From Candidatus Latescibacterota bacterium (GTDB taxonomy: Bacteria; Latescibacterota; UBA2968; GCA-2709665): 64,000 bases of DNA. The notes under the pieces are model-generated. The model was not told the DNA's origin, made no database searches, and saw only the letters and a list, made by a program, of their open reading frames with translations. The position numbers and the translations under genes were made by a program. How positions within the stretch are numbered: position 1 is the stretch's first letter; each line of letters begins with the position of its first letter. This document shows positions 763-11,371 of this stretch, in pieces. The DNA is taken from assembly GCA_965219455.1 (NCBI GenBank), contig OZ244744.1, positions 2,304,001 to 2,368,000 on the forward strand, read 5' to 3'.

Positions 763-1956
763 TTAGAATAAGTCTCGTTGGGTCGACATTAGTTTGTCTG
801 GGGGCTTCGATACCTCATCGACGCGAATTGCCTCAGATAGACCATCTGCTGATTCGAATATTTCCTCATCGCATCCATTGTACAATCCACAGTATTTCTC
901 CTGCGGATTCGGATCATAGATCAACTCGATTTCCCCGTTAGTGCACATTCTCATTTCCCTGACGTCATTGAACAATATTCCCACCTCCTGCTTTGTCATA
1001 ACGGGAAATCCGTAGTTTTCGTTTCTGTACTTCAACGTACGCCCTGAAGCTGTTCTTTCCCTTACGAATTCCAGGTGTCTCGCCAATCTCTCGCTAATAT
1101 ACCGATTGGATGATGCCACGATCTCGGTTGTTCTTTTCGCCAGTGCATCTACAAAGTTAGGGTCGATCTCATAGCCTACACTGTTTCTGCAAGAAGCCAT
1201 TGCAGCCGCCATGGAAGTACCGGTCCCTAAGAATGGATCCAGGACCAGATCTTCTTTCACCGAGAACATATTTAGCAGCCTATACGCAAGTTCAAAAGGA
1301 AAAGCCGCACTTCTCTTGCGTAGATTCTCGTCATCCAGGTCCTGCTTGGCTCCCTTTAGATCAAGCCAAACGTCCGAAAACCACACATTCCTTTCTTCCC
1401 AGAAAAATCCGCTTCTCCTCCTGTGGAGTCTATCGGCTTCTCGTGCGAACTCCCGTTTTCCACCCTTTCTCAAAAGAAGAATAAACTCATGCTCCAAGGT
1501 TACGTAAGCACCAGGCGGCAACATTCCGCTGCCCATGAATTTATTCGGTGCGTTGGTCTGTTTTCTCCAGAGTATCTCGGGTAATGCCTGAAAACCAGCC
1601 GTAAGGCAATTGCACATTATTCTTGAATGACTGGGGTAGAGCTTGAAATCCCCGTTTATCTTTCTTGTGGCGTCACCCACGTTTATGCAGACGATACCCC
1701 CCGGTTTTACAACTCTGTAGACTTCATTCCAGACATTGTCGAGAAGCCGATTCATCAACTCGAATGCACGATTACCATCATTGCTCCGCAATGCTTCACC
1801 AATTTCAGGATTCTGCTTGGTAAATGCGACATCCCACATTTCAATCATCGGGTAAGGTGGTGACGTAATCACCAAATCCACCGATTCATTCTTGAGTTCC
1901 TTCATGTTTTCGGAATTCTCATAAAATACTGTATGTAATGTCTTTAGGTCGCCCAT
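763..1956 (-). CDS. Type II DNA methyltransferase (beta-class N4-C/N6-A), likely CTAG m4C type
   Basis: Catalytic TSPPY precedes SAM-binding DPFLGTGT (beta order). TSPPYPMIEMWD resembles archaeal CTAG methylases. ATG at 1956 has upstream GGAGG; alternative TTG start at 2016. Confidence 0.9.
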   Translation of the reverse strand: MGDLKTLHTVFYENSENMKELKNESVDLVITSPPYPMIEMWDVAFTKQNPEIGEALRSNDGNRAFELMNRLLDNVWNEVYRVVKPGGIVCINVGDATRKINGDFKLYPSHSRIMCNCLTAGFQALPEILWRKQTNAPNKFMGSGMLPPGAYVTLEHEFILLLRKGGKREFAREADRLHRRRSGFFWEERNVWFSDVWLDLKGAKQDLDDENLRKRSAAFPFELAYRLLNMFSVKEDLVLDPFLGTGTSMAAAMASCRNSVGYEIDPNFVDALAKRTTEIVASSNRYISERLARHLEFVRERTASGRTLKYRNENYGFPVMTKQEVGILFNDVREMRMCTNGEIELIYDPNPQEKYCGLYNGCDEEIFESADGLSEAIRVDEVSKPPDKLMSTQRDLF

Positions 1957-2043
1957 CTTGCTCCATCGTCCTCCTGAATTGTCTGCACGAAGAAGTGCCT
2001 TATCCAGTTTTTCCAAGGAATCGGGGCAATAATTACTTTCCGA

Positions 2044-2643
2044 TCAAAATAGCATCGGCGGTTCTTCATCTGGAATCTCTATCGTAATACCGTCTTTCTT
2101 CTTATCGTAATAGACAATCGTTACCTGAATTGAATCGGCCAGGCTTGGCTTTGATTTAAAACTGATTGGTTTAATTGAAAACGGCTGGTCGCCAACAAAT
2201 CCATCGATTCCTTGTGCCTCTTCATACGGATGTGCCAAGCGGTAATCACAACCCTTCAATTCCGCGAGTCTTTTCAAAATTGCTTCTTGAAACCGGAGGC
2301 CAGCAAAAGTCTTCACAAGCACCAAATCCTCGACCCATCTCATCACAAGCTCCCGGCCAATGGCCGGAAATGTTGCTTGGATATTTTCCAGCATAGACGT
2401 AATTCGATCAGTCGCCACATCAATCGCGTCGGGGTATCTCTCGAGATACCACTGGACCCACTCTTGATATGTTTTGCCTGGAAACTCCTGAATCAGATCG
2501 CTCATCTGTCCGACCACCTTCGGCCTGGTTCCCTGCGCGTTTTGATTCGCAAGATTAATTATCTGAGTGGAGTACTTTGGAAAATCCGAAACAGGGGCGT
2601 CCAAGTACTCCTGAATCTCTTCGTTTTTGAGCTTAAATCTCAC
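2044..2643 (-). CDS. MjaI family restriction endonuclease
   Basis: PKYSTQIINLANQNAQGTRPKVVGQMSDLIQEF...EWVQWY and GIDGFVG...SIKP (PD-(D/E)XK-like) match recalled MjaI-family signatures; adjacent to the MTase. Confidence 0.85.
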   Translation of the reverse strand: MRFKLKNEEIQEYLDAPVSDFPKYSTQIINLANQNAQGTRPKVVGQMSDLIQEFPGKTYQEWVQWYLERYPDAIDVATDRITSMLENIQATFPAIGRELVMRWVEDLVLVKTFAGLRFQEAILKRLAELKGCDYRLAHPYEEAQGIDGFVGDQPFSIKPISFKSKPSLADSIQVTIVYYDKKKDGITIEIPDEEPPMLF

Positions 2644-2842: not shown

Positions 2843-3481
2843 TCATCTAGTCTTCCATCTGCCAGGACAATATAGTTCGAAGCCATCCTTTGTAGTTATT
2901 TTTTCCGGTAACATACTGATTTTAAGGTTCTTTCTCCCGATCACGAATGTACCGGTGGCCACTCCGTTCAATGCTCCTGACCACCTGTGGGGGGGAAAGG
3001 CGACTACGACACGCTTTTGATACAATTCAACCACCTTCTCTACCGGGGGCACAAGGTCGCTATCGCCAGATATCAAAATTGCTGTGTCCAATTTATCTTG
3101 TTGGGAATCGACCAACATTTCGACAGCAATCGCGACATCAGTCCTCTTTTCTTCCGGGTTATCCCAATTGAACTTACAGGAAGGACAATACATCTCCTTC
3201 TGAACATAGTGTCCCCAATAGAATTCGATACCGCCTTTCGCTCGCAATGCTTCAAGATAAGTGTTTTGTCTCTTCCACTTGCCGCGGTCTCTATTGTTCT
3301 GAGACACACGGGACGTGAAATATTTCACCTCTATCAAAGTCTGCCGTCCGAGAAGCAGATTATAAGACAAAAGCCTCAAATCCAGCCAAAGAAAACGATT
3401 CTTCCATTTTGACTTTAGACCATAGTAGAGATTGAACCCATCTATATATACAATTACACGATCTTTGCAAGCTTGTTTCAT
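2843..3481 (-). CDS. NYN domain (PIN-fold, LabA/DUF88-like) ribonuclease
   Basis: VYIDGFNLYYG, EEKRTDV and ISGDSDLVP acidic catalytic motifs; CPSC insert. Confidence 0.88.
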   Translation of the reverse strand: MKQACKDRVIVYIDGFNLYYGLKSKWKNRFLWLDLRLLSYNLLLGRQTLIEVKYFTSRVSQNNRDRGKWKRQNTYLEALRAKGGIEFYWGHYVQKEMYCPSCKFNWDNPEEKRTDVAIAVEMLVDSQQDKLDTAILISGDSDLVPPVEKVVELYQKRVVVAFPPHRWSGALNGVATGTFVIGRKNLKISMLPEKITTKDGFELYCPGRWKTR

Positions 3482-3494
3482 GGGGAGTTTTCGC

Positions 3495-3523
3495 TTGACA
3501 GACTCTCGTCAGGATGTTAAATT
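3495..3523 (+). promoter_or_regulatory. sigma70 promoter of putative antisense sRNA
   Basis: TTGACA(3495-3500)-17 bp-TAAATT(3518-3523) with extended -10 TG. Confidence 0.7.
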
Positions 3524-3529
3524 GTCTTT

Positions 3530-3605
3530 GTGCTTAGCATATTGCCCCCCGGAGGATAGCATTCTCCGGCCGACGCTCCTGTCTCGCGGCAGGGGCGTTT
3601 CTTTT
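3530..3605 (+). ncRNA. Putative ~75-nt small RNA antisense to NYN leader
   Basis: Lies between a consensus promoter and an intrinsic terminator (GACGCTCCTGTC-TCGC-GGCAGGGGCGTT-TCTTTT); internal hairpin CCGGAGGAT-AGC-ATTCTCCGG; no credible ORF. Confidence 0.55.
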
Positions 3606-3618
3606 GTTGCCAACATCA

Positions 3619-3647
3619 AGCATAACATATAGTTATTTACCAGTCAA
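3619..3647 (-). promoter_or_regulatory. sigma70 promoter of NYN gene
   Basis: Minus strand TTGACT-17 bp-TATGCT with extended -10 TG; predicted TSS about 3612. Confidence 0.65.
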
Positions 3648-3806
3648 GGGATTTATCTCGGCACAGTAGGTGGGCGCCGGCTGGTGGCCTGACCGATGGA
3701 TCGCTGCATTTGGGTCCGTTTTCGGCTGTACCTGTTTCGGCATGCGCGCCCGTCACTTCCTAATGACGATGAAATCGACCGATTCCCGCAGGGGAGTCGG
3801 CTTCCA

Positions 3807-4499
3807 ATGGAGTTGGATGTCTTGTTGACTTCCGAAGAGTGGATGGTTCTGGCCCTCTCGCTGCGCGTGGGGCTGGTCTGCGTGTTATTGAGCCTGCCTC
3901 CGGCGGTGGTTTTGGGATGGGTGCTTGCCCGGTGTGAATTCAAGGCCAAGATGCTGCTGGACGGCTTGTGCCACCTGCCCCTGGTGCTGCCGCCCGTGGT
4001 GACCGGCTACGTGCTCCTCTTGCTCTTCAGCCGCAGGGGCATTCTGGGCGGTTTTCTGGAGGAGGCGCTGGGAATCCAGGTCGCCTTTACGTGGAAAGGG
4101 GCGGCGCTGGCATCGGCTGTTGTGGGGTTTCCCCTGGCGTTGCGCGCCATCCGGCTGGCCATTGAGCATGTGGACCCCCGGCTGGAACAGGCAGCCCGTA
4201 CATTGGGCGCTGGCCCACTCAGGGTTTTTGTGACGGTAACAATGCGGCTGGCCGCACCCGGGCTGCTGGTTGGCGCGATGCTGGCATTCGCGAGAAGCCT
4301 GGGAGAGTTCGGCGCCACGATCACCTTCGTGTCGAATATCGCCGGGGAAACCCGAACCCTGCCCCTGGCGATCTTCACGTTTCTAAACAGGCCCGGCGGC
4401 GACGCGGCCGTAGCCCGGCTGGCGATCCTGTCCGTGATCCTGTCATTTGCGGCGCTGGTGGCCAGCGAGGCGGTGGCCCGGCGAATGAGGAGAAACTGA
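3807..4499 (+). CDS. modB: Molybdate ABC transporter permease
   Basis: LPLVLPPVVTGY, LEQAARTLGA and FARSLGEFGAT motifs; ATG 3807 with GGGGAG RBS. Confidence 0.93.
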   Translation: MELDVLLTSEEWMVLALSLRVGLVCVLLSLPPAVVLGWVLARCEFKAKMLLDGLCHLPLVLPPVVTGYVLLLLFSRRGILGGFLEEALGIQVAFTWKGAALASAVVGFPLALRAIRLAIEHVDPRLEQAARTLGAGPLRVFVTVTMRLAAPGLLVGAMLAFARSLGEFGATITFVSNIAGETRTLPLAIFTFLNRPGGDAAVARLAILSVILSFAALVASEAVARRMRRN

Positions 4500-4500
4500 A

Positions 4501-5580
4501 GTGCTATCCATCCGCGTGAGGCGGGCGCTGCCGGGATTTACCCTTGACGTGGCGGTGGAATGTCCCTATCCGGCGACGGCGATTTTCGGTCCTTCCGGCG
4601 CGGGAAAAACCACGCTGTTGAACCTGGTGGCAGGCCTGCTGCTGCCGGACGCCGGGGAAATCCGACTTGGCGATCGCGTACTGTTTTCGTCCGAAGCGGG
4701 CGTCAATCTGCCGCCTGAACAGCGCCGCGTGGGTTACGTCTTCCAGGAAGATCTGTTGTTCCCGCATCTGACGGTGATGGAGAATCTGCGATACGGGTAC
4801 GATCTTCTGTCTCCGGATTCTCGCAGATTCGAGGTGGAACCGGTTGCGGGCCTTCTGGAATTGACGGGGTTGCTGGACAGGCGTCCGACGCGGCTGTCGG
4901 GCGGCGAGCGGCAGCGGGTGGCGCTGGGGCGGGCGATTCTGGCCTCGCCGGAATTGCTCCTGATGGATGAGCCCCTGGCTTCGCTGGATCAGGAATTGAA
5001 AGATCGCATCATCCCGTACCTGCGACACATCAGGTCGGACCTGGGCATTCCGATTCTCTACGTGAGCCACTCGGTCGCGGAGATCCTGGAATTGACGGGT
5101 CAGGTGATTGTCCTGAAAGCCGGACGCGTGCTTGCGCACGGAGATTTTTTTCACGTCGCCCATCACCCCGAGGTGCTGCCGCTGGCTGAGGCGCACGGGT
5201 TCGAAAACGTGTTACCGGTGGAGGTGGTGGCGCAGGACGGGGTTCGAAAGGGCTGCCGTGTGCGTTTTGGAGATCAGGATCTTCGGGTGCCTCCCTGCAA
5301 CAGACCGGTGGGAAGCCGGATTTTCATCGGTATTCGGGCAAACGACATCATCCTGAGCAGGAAACGGCCCGAAGGGTTGAGCATTCGCAACGCGATACGG
5401 GGCCGGATCCTCGACGTGACGGACGTGGATGGAAAGCAACTGGTCTACGTGGACGTGGGAAAGCGCCTCGCCGTGGAGGTCACCCTGGAGGCTGTGGAAG
5501 AGTTGGACCTTAAGGTTGGCGACCCGGTGATGTGCCTGGTGAAGGCCCACTCGATCCGGATCGGCCCGAACGTGGATTGA
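4501..5580 (+). CDS. modC: Molybdate ABC transporter ATP-binding protein with TOBE domain
   Basis: GPSGAGKT, LSGGERQRV, LLMDEP; C-terminal GLSIRN/TOBE region. Confidence 0.93.
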   Translation: MLSIRVRRALPGFTLDVAVECPYPATAIFGPSGAGKTTLLNLVAGLLLPDAGEIRLGDRVLFSSEAGVNLPPEQRRVGYVFQEDLLFPHLTVMENLRYGYDLLSPDSRRFEVEPVAGLLELTGLLDRRPTRLSGGERQRVALGRAILASPELLLMDEPLASLDQELKDRIIPYLRHIRSDLGIPILYVSHSVAEILELTGQVIVLKAGRVLAHGDFFHVAHHPEVLPLAEAHGFENVLPVEVVAQDGVRKGCRVRFGDQDLRVPPCNRPVGSRIFIGIRANDIILSRKRPEGLSIRNAIRGRILDVTDVDGKQLVYVDVGKRLAVEVTLEAVEELDLKVGDPVMCLVKAHSIRIGPNVD

Positions 5581-8878: not shown

Positions 8879-9208
8879 TGGCGGATGGGGACATTCCGGA
8901 CATACCCTGTATCATGTTGAGAGACATTGGCTCCAACGCAAACGATTGCGCGTAAAGCGCGCTCGACCGAACTTGTGGAGGCGGCCCGGCCGCATCGGCG
9001 ATCGTACGCGCGTTATGATCGACGCACCTCTGCTACGCCCTAGCCAATTGGCGGGCGCTGAGGAATATAGGACAACCGCTTCCGGGGAGCAATAGCCATC
9101 CTGCCGGGGCCGAGGCCCCGGCGGAAAAATCCCTTGCCGCTGGTTCTTTTCCGGTCATATATTTCCTCGACAAAACACTTGCCACTTGTTCCGGAGGACC
9201 TCGCTGAC

Positions 9209-9790
9209 ATGAGACGTCGAACAACCCGGCAACCGCTCTTAATACCTTTCGCCTTTTTTTCGGCAATGGCGGTTCTCTTTCTTGGCTCTCCGGCGTCGGC
9301 CGGGTCCTTCAAGGCCGGCGGCGGGATGTTCTTCAACAATAATGAACCAGGGGGGGGCATCTCTGTCGACCTGGGCGATGAGGGGTTGGCGCTTTCGCCG
9401 TTTGTGGATTATTTCGGCAAATCCGGCTCCCGCTTTTTCGGCGGCGGGCTTAATGTCGTTGCTAAACGGGCCGGGGGCGAGCAGTCGCAACTCTATATTG
9501 GCGTGGGCGGAGGCATCGCCTCCGTCGACGTGGAAGAAAGTTCGGCCGGCATTACCGGTTCGGCGTCAAAAACACAGGCAATGGCGGATCTCGTGCTGGG
9601 TCTCGAGTTCGACCTGCACGAAAATATCGGAGGTTTCCTGCAGGTAAAATGGCTGGGGACTTTCGGCGGCGGCCGGGTGGACATTACGGGTCAGATTGAA
9701 GGAAGGACCGTTACGATTCCGGACGCGATCGACCTGGAACTCAGAAATTTCGCGACCCAGGCCGGCATCACGATCGATTTCTGGCGTTGA
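9209..9790 (+). CDS. Outer-membrane beta-barrel protein (paralog 1)
   Basis: Signal peptide (ASA), alternating hydrophobic strands, YIGVGGG, terminal QAGITIDF; ATG 9209 with GGAGG. Confidence 0.7.
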   Translation: MRRRTTRQPLLIPFAFFSAMAVLFLGSPASAGSFKAGGGMFFNNNEPGGGISVDLGDEGLALSPFVDYFGKSGSRFFGGGLNVVAKRAGGEQSQLYIGVGGGIASVDVEESSAGITGSASKTQAMADLVLGLEFDLHENIGGFLQVKWLGTFGGGRVDITGQIEGRTVTIPDAIDLELRNFATQAGITIDFWR

Positions 9791-10097: not shown

Positions 10098-10700
10098 ATG
10101 CACGCGTTGATCCGCGTTCTCTTAGTCATTGGCTTTACTGCAATGCTCACCACCTCGACCGCGTGGGCGCAGCATGCGCTCAAGCTGGGCGGAGGTATAC
10201 ACCTTGACGAAGAAACGCCGGGGATAGGACTCGCGTACGACATCAGTGCCTCGGAAGGGTTGGTTGCGTTTTCTCCATTTGTCGATTTCTTCTCCAAATC
10301 CGCCAATACGGTCTTCGGGGGCGGGTTGAACCTGATCGTGAAGCGTCCTGTGGGTGAAAAAGGCGTCTTCTTCTTCGGCGGCGGGGGTGGGTTCGGCAGT
10401 GTGAAGGACACGCAGGAATTCGATGTTGACATAGGCGAAACCACCGATTTATCGGTAGAGACAGTCGAGGCTTCAAGAACACAGGCAATGGTCAATGTGC
10501 TGATCGGCCTGGAACTTGCCGCCACCGAGAGGGCATCGGTTTTCCTGCAGGCCAAGTGGATTGGCATGTACAGCGGAGAACCCGAAGTCTACCGTCTCTC
10601 CAATGACGAGGAGGTGGCGCCTGAACTGGACGTGAAGAGTTTCGCATTTCAGGTTGGCCTGTCTATCAATATTGGCCAACCGCAAGTTGAAGAATACTAG
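10098..10700 (+). CDS. Outer-membrane beta-barrel protein (paralog 2)
   Basis: Signal peptide (AWA); shares SPFVDFF.KS...FGGGLN, TQAM, FLQAKW and QVGLSINI with paralog 1. Confidence 0.7.
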   Translation: MHALIRVLLVIGFTAMLTTSTAWAQHALKLGGGIHLDEETPGIGLAYDISASEGLVAFSPFVDFFSKSANTVFGGGLNLIVKRPVGEKGVFFFGGGGGFGSVKDTQEFDVDIGETTDLSVETVEASRTQAMVNVLIGLELAATERASVFLQAKWIGMYSGEPEVYRLSNDEEVAPELDVKSFAFQVGLSINIGQPQVEEY

Positions 10701-10864
10701 CAAATCGATCGCGCCTGTAAGTGGGATTCAGACGTGGTCGGCCGCACGCCGCCTGGCGTCAGGTGGCGACCGTAATTTGCGAGCGGTCCGCCCCAAAGAT
10801 GTCTCCGTTGGAAACGGGCAAGACTTATTTCACGCGCCGCCAACGCGCCGCAGGTAATGGAGGT

Positions 10865-11371
10865 ATGATGAGACTTCGAATATTGGCTTTGCTGTCGGGC
10901 TTCGCCTTTCTGGCCGCCACGCCCGTCGCCGCCAGAGACTTCGCGGTGAGTGCGGGTGGGGGAACGCTGTTCAACCCGACCCGGCCGGGCGGTCACTTTT
11001 CGTTCGAGATGTCGCTGAGCGACGAGTATCCCACCCACCTCGCGCCATTCTTCGAGCTGTACAACGATTCAGGCACAAGGATTATCCCGATAGGAATCTC
11101 GCTGCTATACAAACCGCCTCTTTCTGAATACGGCGGCACGATATATTTCGGCGCCGGCGGCGGCGCGTTGCTGGTTCGCGGCCAACCCGGTCCTGGCCTT
11201 GCAACCGGTACAGACGGGATGATCACCGTGGCGGGCGGCTTATCGTTTGGCGTGGGGCCGCGCGCGGGGGTGTTTATGCAGGTGCGCTGGTTTCGATCCT
11301 TCGAAGATCAGACGGCAGAGAACGAAATTGGCATTCAGGCAGGCGTACGCTTCAATCTGAGCGGCGGTTGA
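10865..11371 (+). CDS. Outer-membrane beta-barrel protein (paralog 3)
   Basis: Signal peptide, APFFELY, YFGAGGG, FMQVRW, QAGVRFN; ATG 10865 with GGAGG. Confidence 0.65.
   Translation: MMRLRILALLSGFAFLAATPVAARDFAVSAGGGTLFNPTRPGGHFSFEMSLSDEYPTHLAPFFELYNDSGTRIIPIGISLLYKPPLSEYGGTIYFGAGGGALLVRGQPGPGLATGTDGMITVAGGLSFGVGPRAGVFMQVRWFRSFEDQTAENEIGIQAGVRFNLSGG

Follow-up and report, generated by a model that had tools for sequence, protein, structure and literature searches.

In a 64,000-nucleotide (nt) stretch of the genome of a Candidatus Latescibacterota bacterium (assembly GCA_965219455.1, contig OZ244744.1, positions 2,304,001 to 2,368,000 of the forward strand; hereafter ‘the window’), a gene for an NYN-domain ribonuclease (RNase) of the HEC-09 family lies beside a gene for a small RNA of ~75 nt on the opposite strand. 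The plus-strand RNA gene is real and belongs to a conserved family that has no entry in Rfam 15; this family is linked to NYN genes in an asymmetric manner. On balance we lean towards the view that the two genes constitute one module, in which the RNA acts in trans, most likely as an antitoxin or inhibitor that binds the RNase in the manner of a type III toxin-antitoxin (TA) system. A trans-acting RNA partner is proposed because the association is independent of orientation, because the architecture is common across phyla and because the linkage is asymmetric. An earlier note, made from the letters of the window alone, had suggested that a small RNA restrains a toxic RNase by antisense pairing or by direct binding. 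The part of that suggestion that stands is an independently transcribed and conserved RNA partner, whereas cis-antisense pairing with the NYN leader does not stand as a general mechanism, since the orientation varies and the promoter that it calls for is not conserved.

The small RNA is conserved in sequence and structure

The earlier note had read, in the bases upstream of the NYN gene, a plus-strand promoter with a 17-nt spacer and a TG element, followed by an RNA with a hairpin and an intrinsic terminator, and these features are indeed present (Table 1). Promoter-like sites in 3 kb numbered 4, against 1.9 ± 1.5 in shuffles; promoter matches alone are thus within chance and the case rests on comparative data. 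The segment 3530-3610 of the plus strand was predicted to fold, at -34.2 kcal/mol and z = -2.58, into the hairpin and a terminator of 12 bp; for the opposite strand of the RNA gene z was -0.36, which indicates no excess of structure. The window copy scored 88.4 bits with R1, a covariance model built for the RNA. Rfam 15 gave no match across the whole window at gathering scores and nothing relevant at E values up to 10 in 3400-3850, and when the RNA was searched in 17 diverse loci no Rfam 15 family fell on it, the sole matches being RNAI of ColE1 replicons, on enterobacterial plasmids and downstream of NYN. A 66-amino-acid (aa) open reading frame (ORF; 3432-3632, plus strand) that lies over the RNA was considered as a coding gene and rejected, because copies of the RNA differ by 1-nt and 10-nt indels and by compensatory changes in the stems.

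The source genome contains a second copy of the RNA, 85% identical and 558 kb distant (G000:C1:2865758-2865832; locus L002, ~1500-1585), which has its own TTGACA promoter and terminator and adjoins ilvD without an NYN gene. The counterpart ilvD locus of genome G007 retains an NYN gene, which matches only profile positions 14-178. By DNA search the element was present in 13 of the 14 other genomes of the genus, at one to three copies each. Alignment of 31 copies gave the consensus order C-run, hairpin 1, CCGAC linker, terminator and U-tract, and in RNAalifold these copies form 16 pairs, compensatory changes being present at 7. Pairs of the G-U type occurred in 21, 27 and 16 sequences of this alignment; the opposite strand would have A-C mismatches in their place, and so the plus strand is the one from which the RNA is read. 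In an alignment of 65 copies (A4), which was fitted to the covariance model so that its pair counts are inflated, 96.5% of cells were paired and 14 of the 16 pairs changed on both sides. The covariation score was 0.513 as compared with 0.192 in shuffles (0 of 500 reached the observed value), and slid partners gave at most 0.10. All nine pairs of hairpin 1 had changed on both sides across the 65 copies, while the terminator helix was 99.3% paired and had changed on both sides at five of its seven pairs. Homologous loci therefore do share a conserved RNA with covarying stems. The promoter of the RNA is conserved as well: in 14 of 16 Latescibacterota loci the RNA was preceded, at a constant distance, by a sigma70-like promoter, and the RNA promoter was found in 24 of 47 metagenomic and plasmid copies compared with 5 of 136 control windows.

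Top-scoring NYN genes are accompanied by the RNA, and the RNA is often found alone

HEC-09 matches were present in 39 of 168 Latescibacterota genomes. R1 matched all 18 distinct Latescibacterota loci in which HEC-09 scored at least 250 bits, right by the gene start, and some HEC-09 loci had two to three tandem copies of the RNA. A whole-genome search of 151 Latescibacterota genomes with R2, a second model built from 65 hits, returned 57 RNA copies in 32 genomes, of which 23 lay by a full-length NYN gene, 5 by NYN fragments and 29 without an NYN match within 700 nt. Seen from the side of the protein, 18 of the 19 top-scoring NYN genes had the RNA within 400 nt in the R2 search, and the nineteenth, in genome G139, has it in the R1 search. 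Hence each of the 19 top NYN genes comes with the RNA, but many RNAs stand without the gene, as one would expect if a toxin were paired with a partner that protects against it. The orphan copies retain the promoter and the structure, and in genomes G010, G004 and G008, where an NYN gene was not found at the site, the bases just upstream of the RNA promoter resemble, by eye, the first NYN codons. In the source genome NYN is a single-copy gene.

The linkage extends beyond the phylum. A scan of genome contigs with a single protein gave only 2 near-identical loci, and the wider sample was drawn from genome, plasmid, phage and metagenome searches. In the metagenomes, 13 aligned NYN proteins as the query retrieved 80 loci, which were 31-54% identical. 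At E < 1e-3, R2 detected the RNA at 40 of the 42 closest metagenomic NYN loci and at 4 of the 38 more distant ones. The RNA adjoins NYN on plasmid pTHEOS01 of Thermus oshimai (57.6-67.5 bits), on a Microbacterium plasmid and on two Streptomyces plasmids, and both a gut phage scaffold and a Mycobacterium abscessus prophage carry the RNA with NYN. Across phyla the sequence and structure of the RNA are kept, the NYN proteins there being 35-50% identical, and RNA subtypes track NYN subtypes. Judged from these sequences, the module would cover Latescibacterota, Deinococcota and Actinomycetota at the least, there being fainter signs of it in Pseudomonadota, Acidobacteriota and Spirochaetota, and would be carried by plasmids and a prophage.

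We considered whether the RNA might instead assist NYN, for instance as a cofactor, guide, sensor or determinant of specificity, or be its natural substrate. Linkage and co-divergence show partnership and not its sign, and the conserved single-stranded C-run and the hairpin loop could serve as a recognition or pairing surface. However, the failure to find top-scoring NYN genes without the RNA, together with the abundance of orphan RNAs, is the signature expected of a protective partner, and a cofactor would more likely be lost along with its enzyme. A positive or substrate role is thus unlikely in our judgement.

The orientation of the RNA relative to NYN varies

Among 44 metagenomic loci with strong matches, the RNA was divergent and upstream of NYN in 39, co-directional and upstream in 3, and convergent and downstream in 2. 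In the divergent loci the distance from the NYN start to the 5′ end of the RNA model had a median of 60 nt and ranged from 16 to 129 nt; the RNA gene of the window begins 49 nt from its NYN start. In the co-directional metagenomic loci 13-19 nt separate the U-tract of the RNA terminator from the start of the NYN ORF. Co-directional relatives (L073-L077, L086, L111, L120, L158 and L177) have a consensus promoter before the RNA and the NYN ORF directly after the U-tract, the promoter being common to both, and two of them, L111 and L120, contain the window-type RNA in this orientation (67.8 and 59.9 bits). The RNA of the Mycobacterium prophage is on the opposite strand and ends at the NYN stop codon. 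In distant NYN clades, 24 of 29 weak matches (E values of 3e-4 to ~1.7) were on the NYN strand immediately before the start codon, a target region that makes up ~3% of the searched positions. The RNAs of these clades follow the same design of C-run, hairpin, C-rich linker and terminator, and in their alignment (A5, fitted to the covariance model like A4 and inflated in the same way) 94.2% of cells were paired with a score of 0.716 compared with 0.163.

These arrangements bear on a purely cis-antisense, type I-like control, in which the NYN mRNA would begin on the far side of the RNA gene, and the RNA would pair with this leader and block translation or trigger cleavage without any contact between RNA and protein. 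Such control would suit the majority arrangement, where the short spacing leaves little room for an NYN promoter so that the NYN transcript must cross the RNA gene antisense, and it would suit the minus-strand promoter-like site of the window, which the earlier note had reported and which is present in the sequence with its 17-nt spacer and TG element. However, a promoter in the NYN sense beyond the RNA was found in only 4 of the 16 Latescibacterota loci and in 1 of 41 other divergent loci, as compared with 5 of 122 control windows. The convergent promoter pair is therefore a feature of the window locus type and not of the module, and the expectation that both promoters would recur at homologous loci failed. 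Furthermore, the RNA family also occurs co-directionally and convergently downstream, where it has no complementarity to the leader, and conservation of its sequence and structure across phyla, at the protein identities given above, would be unexpected if complementarity were its only job. Overall, pure cis-antisense control appears improbable. Direct binding of the RNA to the protein fits the data better than pairing with the leader in cis, and the antisense overlap in the window arrangement may be at most an extra layer.

The element could also be mainly a transcriptional attenuator or insulator that sets NYN expression and has no function in trans, as the closeness of the NYN ORF to the terminator and the shared promoter in the co-directional loci might suggest. 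We regard this as quite improbable: the element is on the opposite strand in 39 of the 44 loci, its terminator has no U-tract in the direction of NYN, the orphan copies retain promoter and structure, and termination does not need a conserved C-run and hairpin 1. Finally, an incidental adjacency, with the RNA a host small RNA or a hot spot where NYN islands insert, is very improbable. In its favour, most genomes of the genus have a window-type copy at a constant position upstream of modB, whether or not the island is there, the islands of G009 and G007 are flanked by two RNA copies, and half of the RNA copies are orphan. Against it, the pair turns up again in unrelated settings in several phyla, on plasmids and in a prophage, the subtypes of RNA and NYN track each other, and in G010, G004 and G008 bases that by eye resemble the first NYN codons adjoin the RNA promoter.

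The NYN protein is a full-length HEC-09 member

The NYN protein matched Pfam NYN (PF01936) at residues 8-172 with 49.1 bits (cut-off 24.2; E 1.1e-12) and the PADLOC HEC-09 profile at residues 7-210, covering profile positions 2-203 of 203 (253.7 bits, E 2.9e-76). Residues D14, D115, D140 and D142 were invariant in 13 homologues of 29-57% identity. The AlphaFold2 model had a predicted local distance difference test (pLDDT) score of 90.6, and its top Foldseek matches were 2qip (Vibrio VPA0982; E 1.6e-10) and the MARF1 NYN domains 5yaa and 6fdl (9e-06); a sequence search against structures found only 2qip, weakly. Pfam assigned no family other than NYN to the protein, and hence none of the ToxN/AbiQ type, in agreement with its NYN fold. 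Three metatranscriptomic libraries, all from one study, contain contigs that are 99-100% identical to the NYN coding sequence over 3154-3459, and none that covers the RNA gene; such contigs may contain DNA, so the matches are no proof of transcription and are uninformative on the 75-nt RNA. A literature search found no published description of an NYN RNase gene paired with a small RNA, and the earlier note likewise knew of no characterised system of this kind.

The locus and its neighbourhood

The coordinates of the features in the window are given in Table 1. The restriction-modification (R-M) pair is downstream of the NYN gene on the same strand. The earlier note placed the NYN gene beside an R-M system in an island of low GC content, and this is the case: the endonuclease is of the MjaI type, the methylase is an N4/N6 enzyme, and GC is 0.42-0.50 in the NYN/R-M island as compared with 0.60-0.65 in the flanking GntR and modB/modC genes. 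From the NYN start (3481) to the next gene there are 214 bp, which contain both promoter-like sites and the terminator. The bases that precede the NYN ATG are ...AAAACTCCCC; they include no GGAGG-like Shine-Dalgarno sequence, and the absence of a clear ribosome-binding site was likewise read correctly in the earlier note.

Table 1. Coordinates, strands and sources of the features of the NYN/small RNA locus in the window.
Feature	Position	Strand	Basis or remark
NYN-domain (PIN-like) RNase gene, 212 aa, HEC-09 family	2843-3481	-	Pfam, PADLOC
Small RNA gene, ~75 nt	3530-3607	+	Start predicted from -10 box; covariance models match 3536-3609
Small RNA promoter: -35 TTGACA (3495-3500), 17-nt spacer, TG, -10 TAAATT (3518-3523)	3495-3523	+	Motif scan, 10/12
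5′ C-run, most conserved single-stranded element of the RNA family	3545-3550	+	Alignments A2, A4, A5
Hairpin 1, 9-bp stem, AGC loop	3549-3569	+	Folding
Intrinsic terminator: stem 3572-3599, then T-rich tail	3572-3607	+	Terminator scan, folding
Promoter-like site facing NYN: TTGACT, 17-nt spacer, TG, TATGCT; function uncertain	3647-3619	-	Motif scan, 9/12
Type II R-M pair, context rather than part of the module	763-2643	-	Pfam/PADLOC; same low-GC island
N4/N6 DNA methylase	763-2016	-	Pfam/PADLOC
MjaI-type restriction endonuclease	2044-2643	-	Pfam/PADLOC

Directly downstream of the RNA gene, 3696-5580 encodes an ATP-binding cassette (ABC) transporter permease (BPD_transp_1) and an ATPase with a TOBE domain, which resemble modB and modC; the ORF list has no modA-like gene beside them. 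The same permease gene lies downstream of the window-type RNA in G007, G012, G009, G010, G004 and G011, among the matches listed. In G009 and G007 the R-M and NYN island has a copy of the RNA gene on either side, the two being in direct orientation and ~3.6 kb apart (G009:C1:3234766-3238526 and G007:C53:122-3823; loci L020, L007, L022 and L005, listed jointly), and in G012 the interval between two RNA copies is 255-280 bp and lacks the island (G012:C2:3058202-3058554; L006). No left-hand RNA copy was found in the window at 330-780. The flanking copies may reflect recombination between copies or insertion beside an RNA gene. In G011 and G013 (L010 and L013, ~1476-1510) the sequence abutting the -10 box of the RNA resembles, by eye, the 5′ half of a tRNA; ARAGORN calls no tRNA at this junction, and the tRNA-like sequence may be an old junction.

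Among the more distant relatives, NYN homologues of 27-35% identity occur on many small enterobacterial plasmids (27 from Klebsiella and 10 from Escherichia among 59 plasmid records). A 5.3-kb ColE1-type plasmid of Klebsiella pneumoniae (L094, 501-700) has, upstream of NYN, a direct repeat of 53 nt in two copies, followed by a terminator that immediately precedes the NYN ATG, and has RNAI downstream of NYN. Elsewhere in the window, three consecutive plus-strand ORFs of ~200-218 aa (9134-9790, 10098-10700 and 10721-11371) appear in the ORF list as paralogue-like, with glycine-rich repeats.

Discussion

In the mechanism that we propose, the NYN and RNA genes would move and diverge as a unit, and the RNA would be produced in excess from its own strong promoter and would act in trans on the NYN RNase, probably by binding the protein as an antitoxin or inhibitor. 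Since NYN is usually without a recognisable promoter, we propose that it is weakly expressed: the NYN transcript of the window would run antisense through the RNA gene, and that of the co-directional relatives would arise by read-through of the RNA terminator. Loss or outpacing of the RNA, for example when transcription is shut off or the element is lost, would release the RNase. It is from the independence of orientation and the asymmetry of linkage in the compared sequences that we infer that the RNA binds and inhibits NYN; NYN would be toxic to the cell, and the pair may have a role in defence or plasmid addiction.

Several observations weigh against an inhibitory RNA that binds NYN. Known type III antitoxins are repetitive, but Tandem Repeats Finder (TRF) detected no tandem repeats in 3400-3720 and the family aligns as a single unit. 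The orphan RNAs, 29 of the 57 copies, would also fit an RNA with a function of its own, and antisense control may operate in the window arrangement. The pair counts of the 65-copy and distant-clade alignments are inflated by the fit to the model. On the enterobacterial plasmids L085, L093 and L094 no covariance-model match was found upstream of NYN, where the leader is, by eye only, longer and different. On Leptospira, Methylobacterium and Methylorubrum plasmids a similar RNA design upstream of NYN was seen by eye only, R2 detecting nothing in Leptospira L087 or Methylobacterium L089, and in Granulicella the design was again seen by eye with a model match of just 11.3 bits (E ~0.5). Lastly, according to the available text of Payne et al. 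(bioRxiv 10.1101/2024.01.29.577857), a HEC-09 representative cloned with ~150 bp of upstream sequence gave no defence against the tested phages, and isopropyl β-D-thiogalactopyranoside (IPTG) was withheld for apparent toxicity solely for HEC-03 and HEC-04.

In the available text of the same preprint (10.1101/2024.01.29.577857) HEC-09 is a single NYN/MARF1-like gene embedded in Hma systems and is described as a single protein gene without a defence phenotype; the main text uses neither ‘non-coding’ nor ‘ncRNA’, and the partner RNA is new to that description. The window protein is a full-length member of this family; its gene has other defence genes next to it, here the type II R-M pair, but is outside any Hma system, and the Thermus NYN gene follows a helicase-related gene.

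With regard to known RNA-antitoxin systems, the closest likeness is to type III TA systems (ToxIN, CptIN and TenpIN), in which, likewise, an RNase gene has as its partner a small RNA gene equipped with a strong promoter and a terminator. ToxIN is laid out as promoter, RNA, terminator and toxin; the co-directional relatives described here have the same order of promoter, RNA, terminator and ORF, and the asymmetry of orphan partners is present too. The differences are that the window RNA is divergent rather than upstream on the same strand, divergence being the commonest arrangement in the family, that the protein has an NYN/PIN-like fold and not that of ToxN/AbiQ, and that the RNA consists of one structured unit, with no tandem repetition. 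Type I systems such as SymE/SymR have an antisense RNA across the 5′ end of the mRNA for a nuclease-like toxin; the geometry in the window would allow such an overlap, the RNA gene being on the strand opposite to that where the 5′ untranslated region of NYN must run. In contrast to those systems, the orientation varies, the RNA is conserved in sequence and structure across phyla, and the protein is a 212-aa soluble NYN enzyme and not a small hydrophobic membrane peptide. The abiF RNA motif, found with AbiF/AbiD, is likewise a structured RNA conserved beside a defence-type gene, but Rfam gives no match to the window RNA and the protein family is different. NYN domains of the LabA/MARF1 type (Protein Data Bank entries 2qip, 5yaa and 6fdl) have the same fold and the same acidic active-site residues, and we know of none with a dedicated small RNA partner.

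It is plausible, although we would stop a little short of calling it probable, that the pair represents a widespread and previously undescribed RNA-protein TA or defence module in which a single, non-repetitive structured RNA directly neutralises an NYN/PIN-like RNase. If so, it would be the first RNA-antitoxin system with an NYN toxin, and HEC-09, regarded as an ‘inactive’ single-gene candidate, would become a two-component system. The present analysis gives a new cross-phylum small RNA family, outside Rfam 15, a specific protein partner, and it recasts a published candidate defence gene as a two-part RNA-protein system. It also provides a rule for finding further members, namely an NYN gene with an RNA of C-run, hairpin and terminator within ~150 nt, and the pair is small enough for direct testing in E. 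coli. Should the RNA prove to be an antitoxin, RNA-antitoxin systems would extend to NYN/PIN-like RNases and to non-repetitive RNAs.

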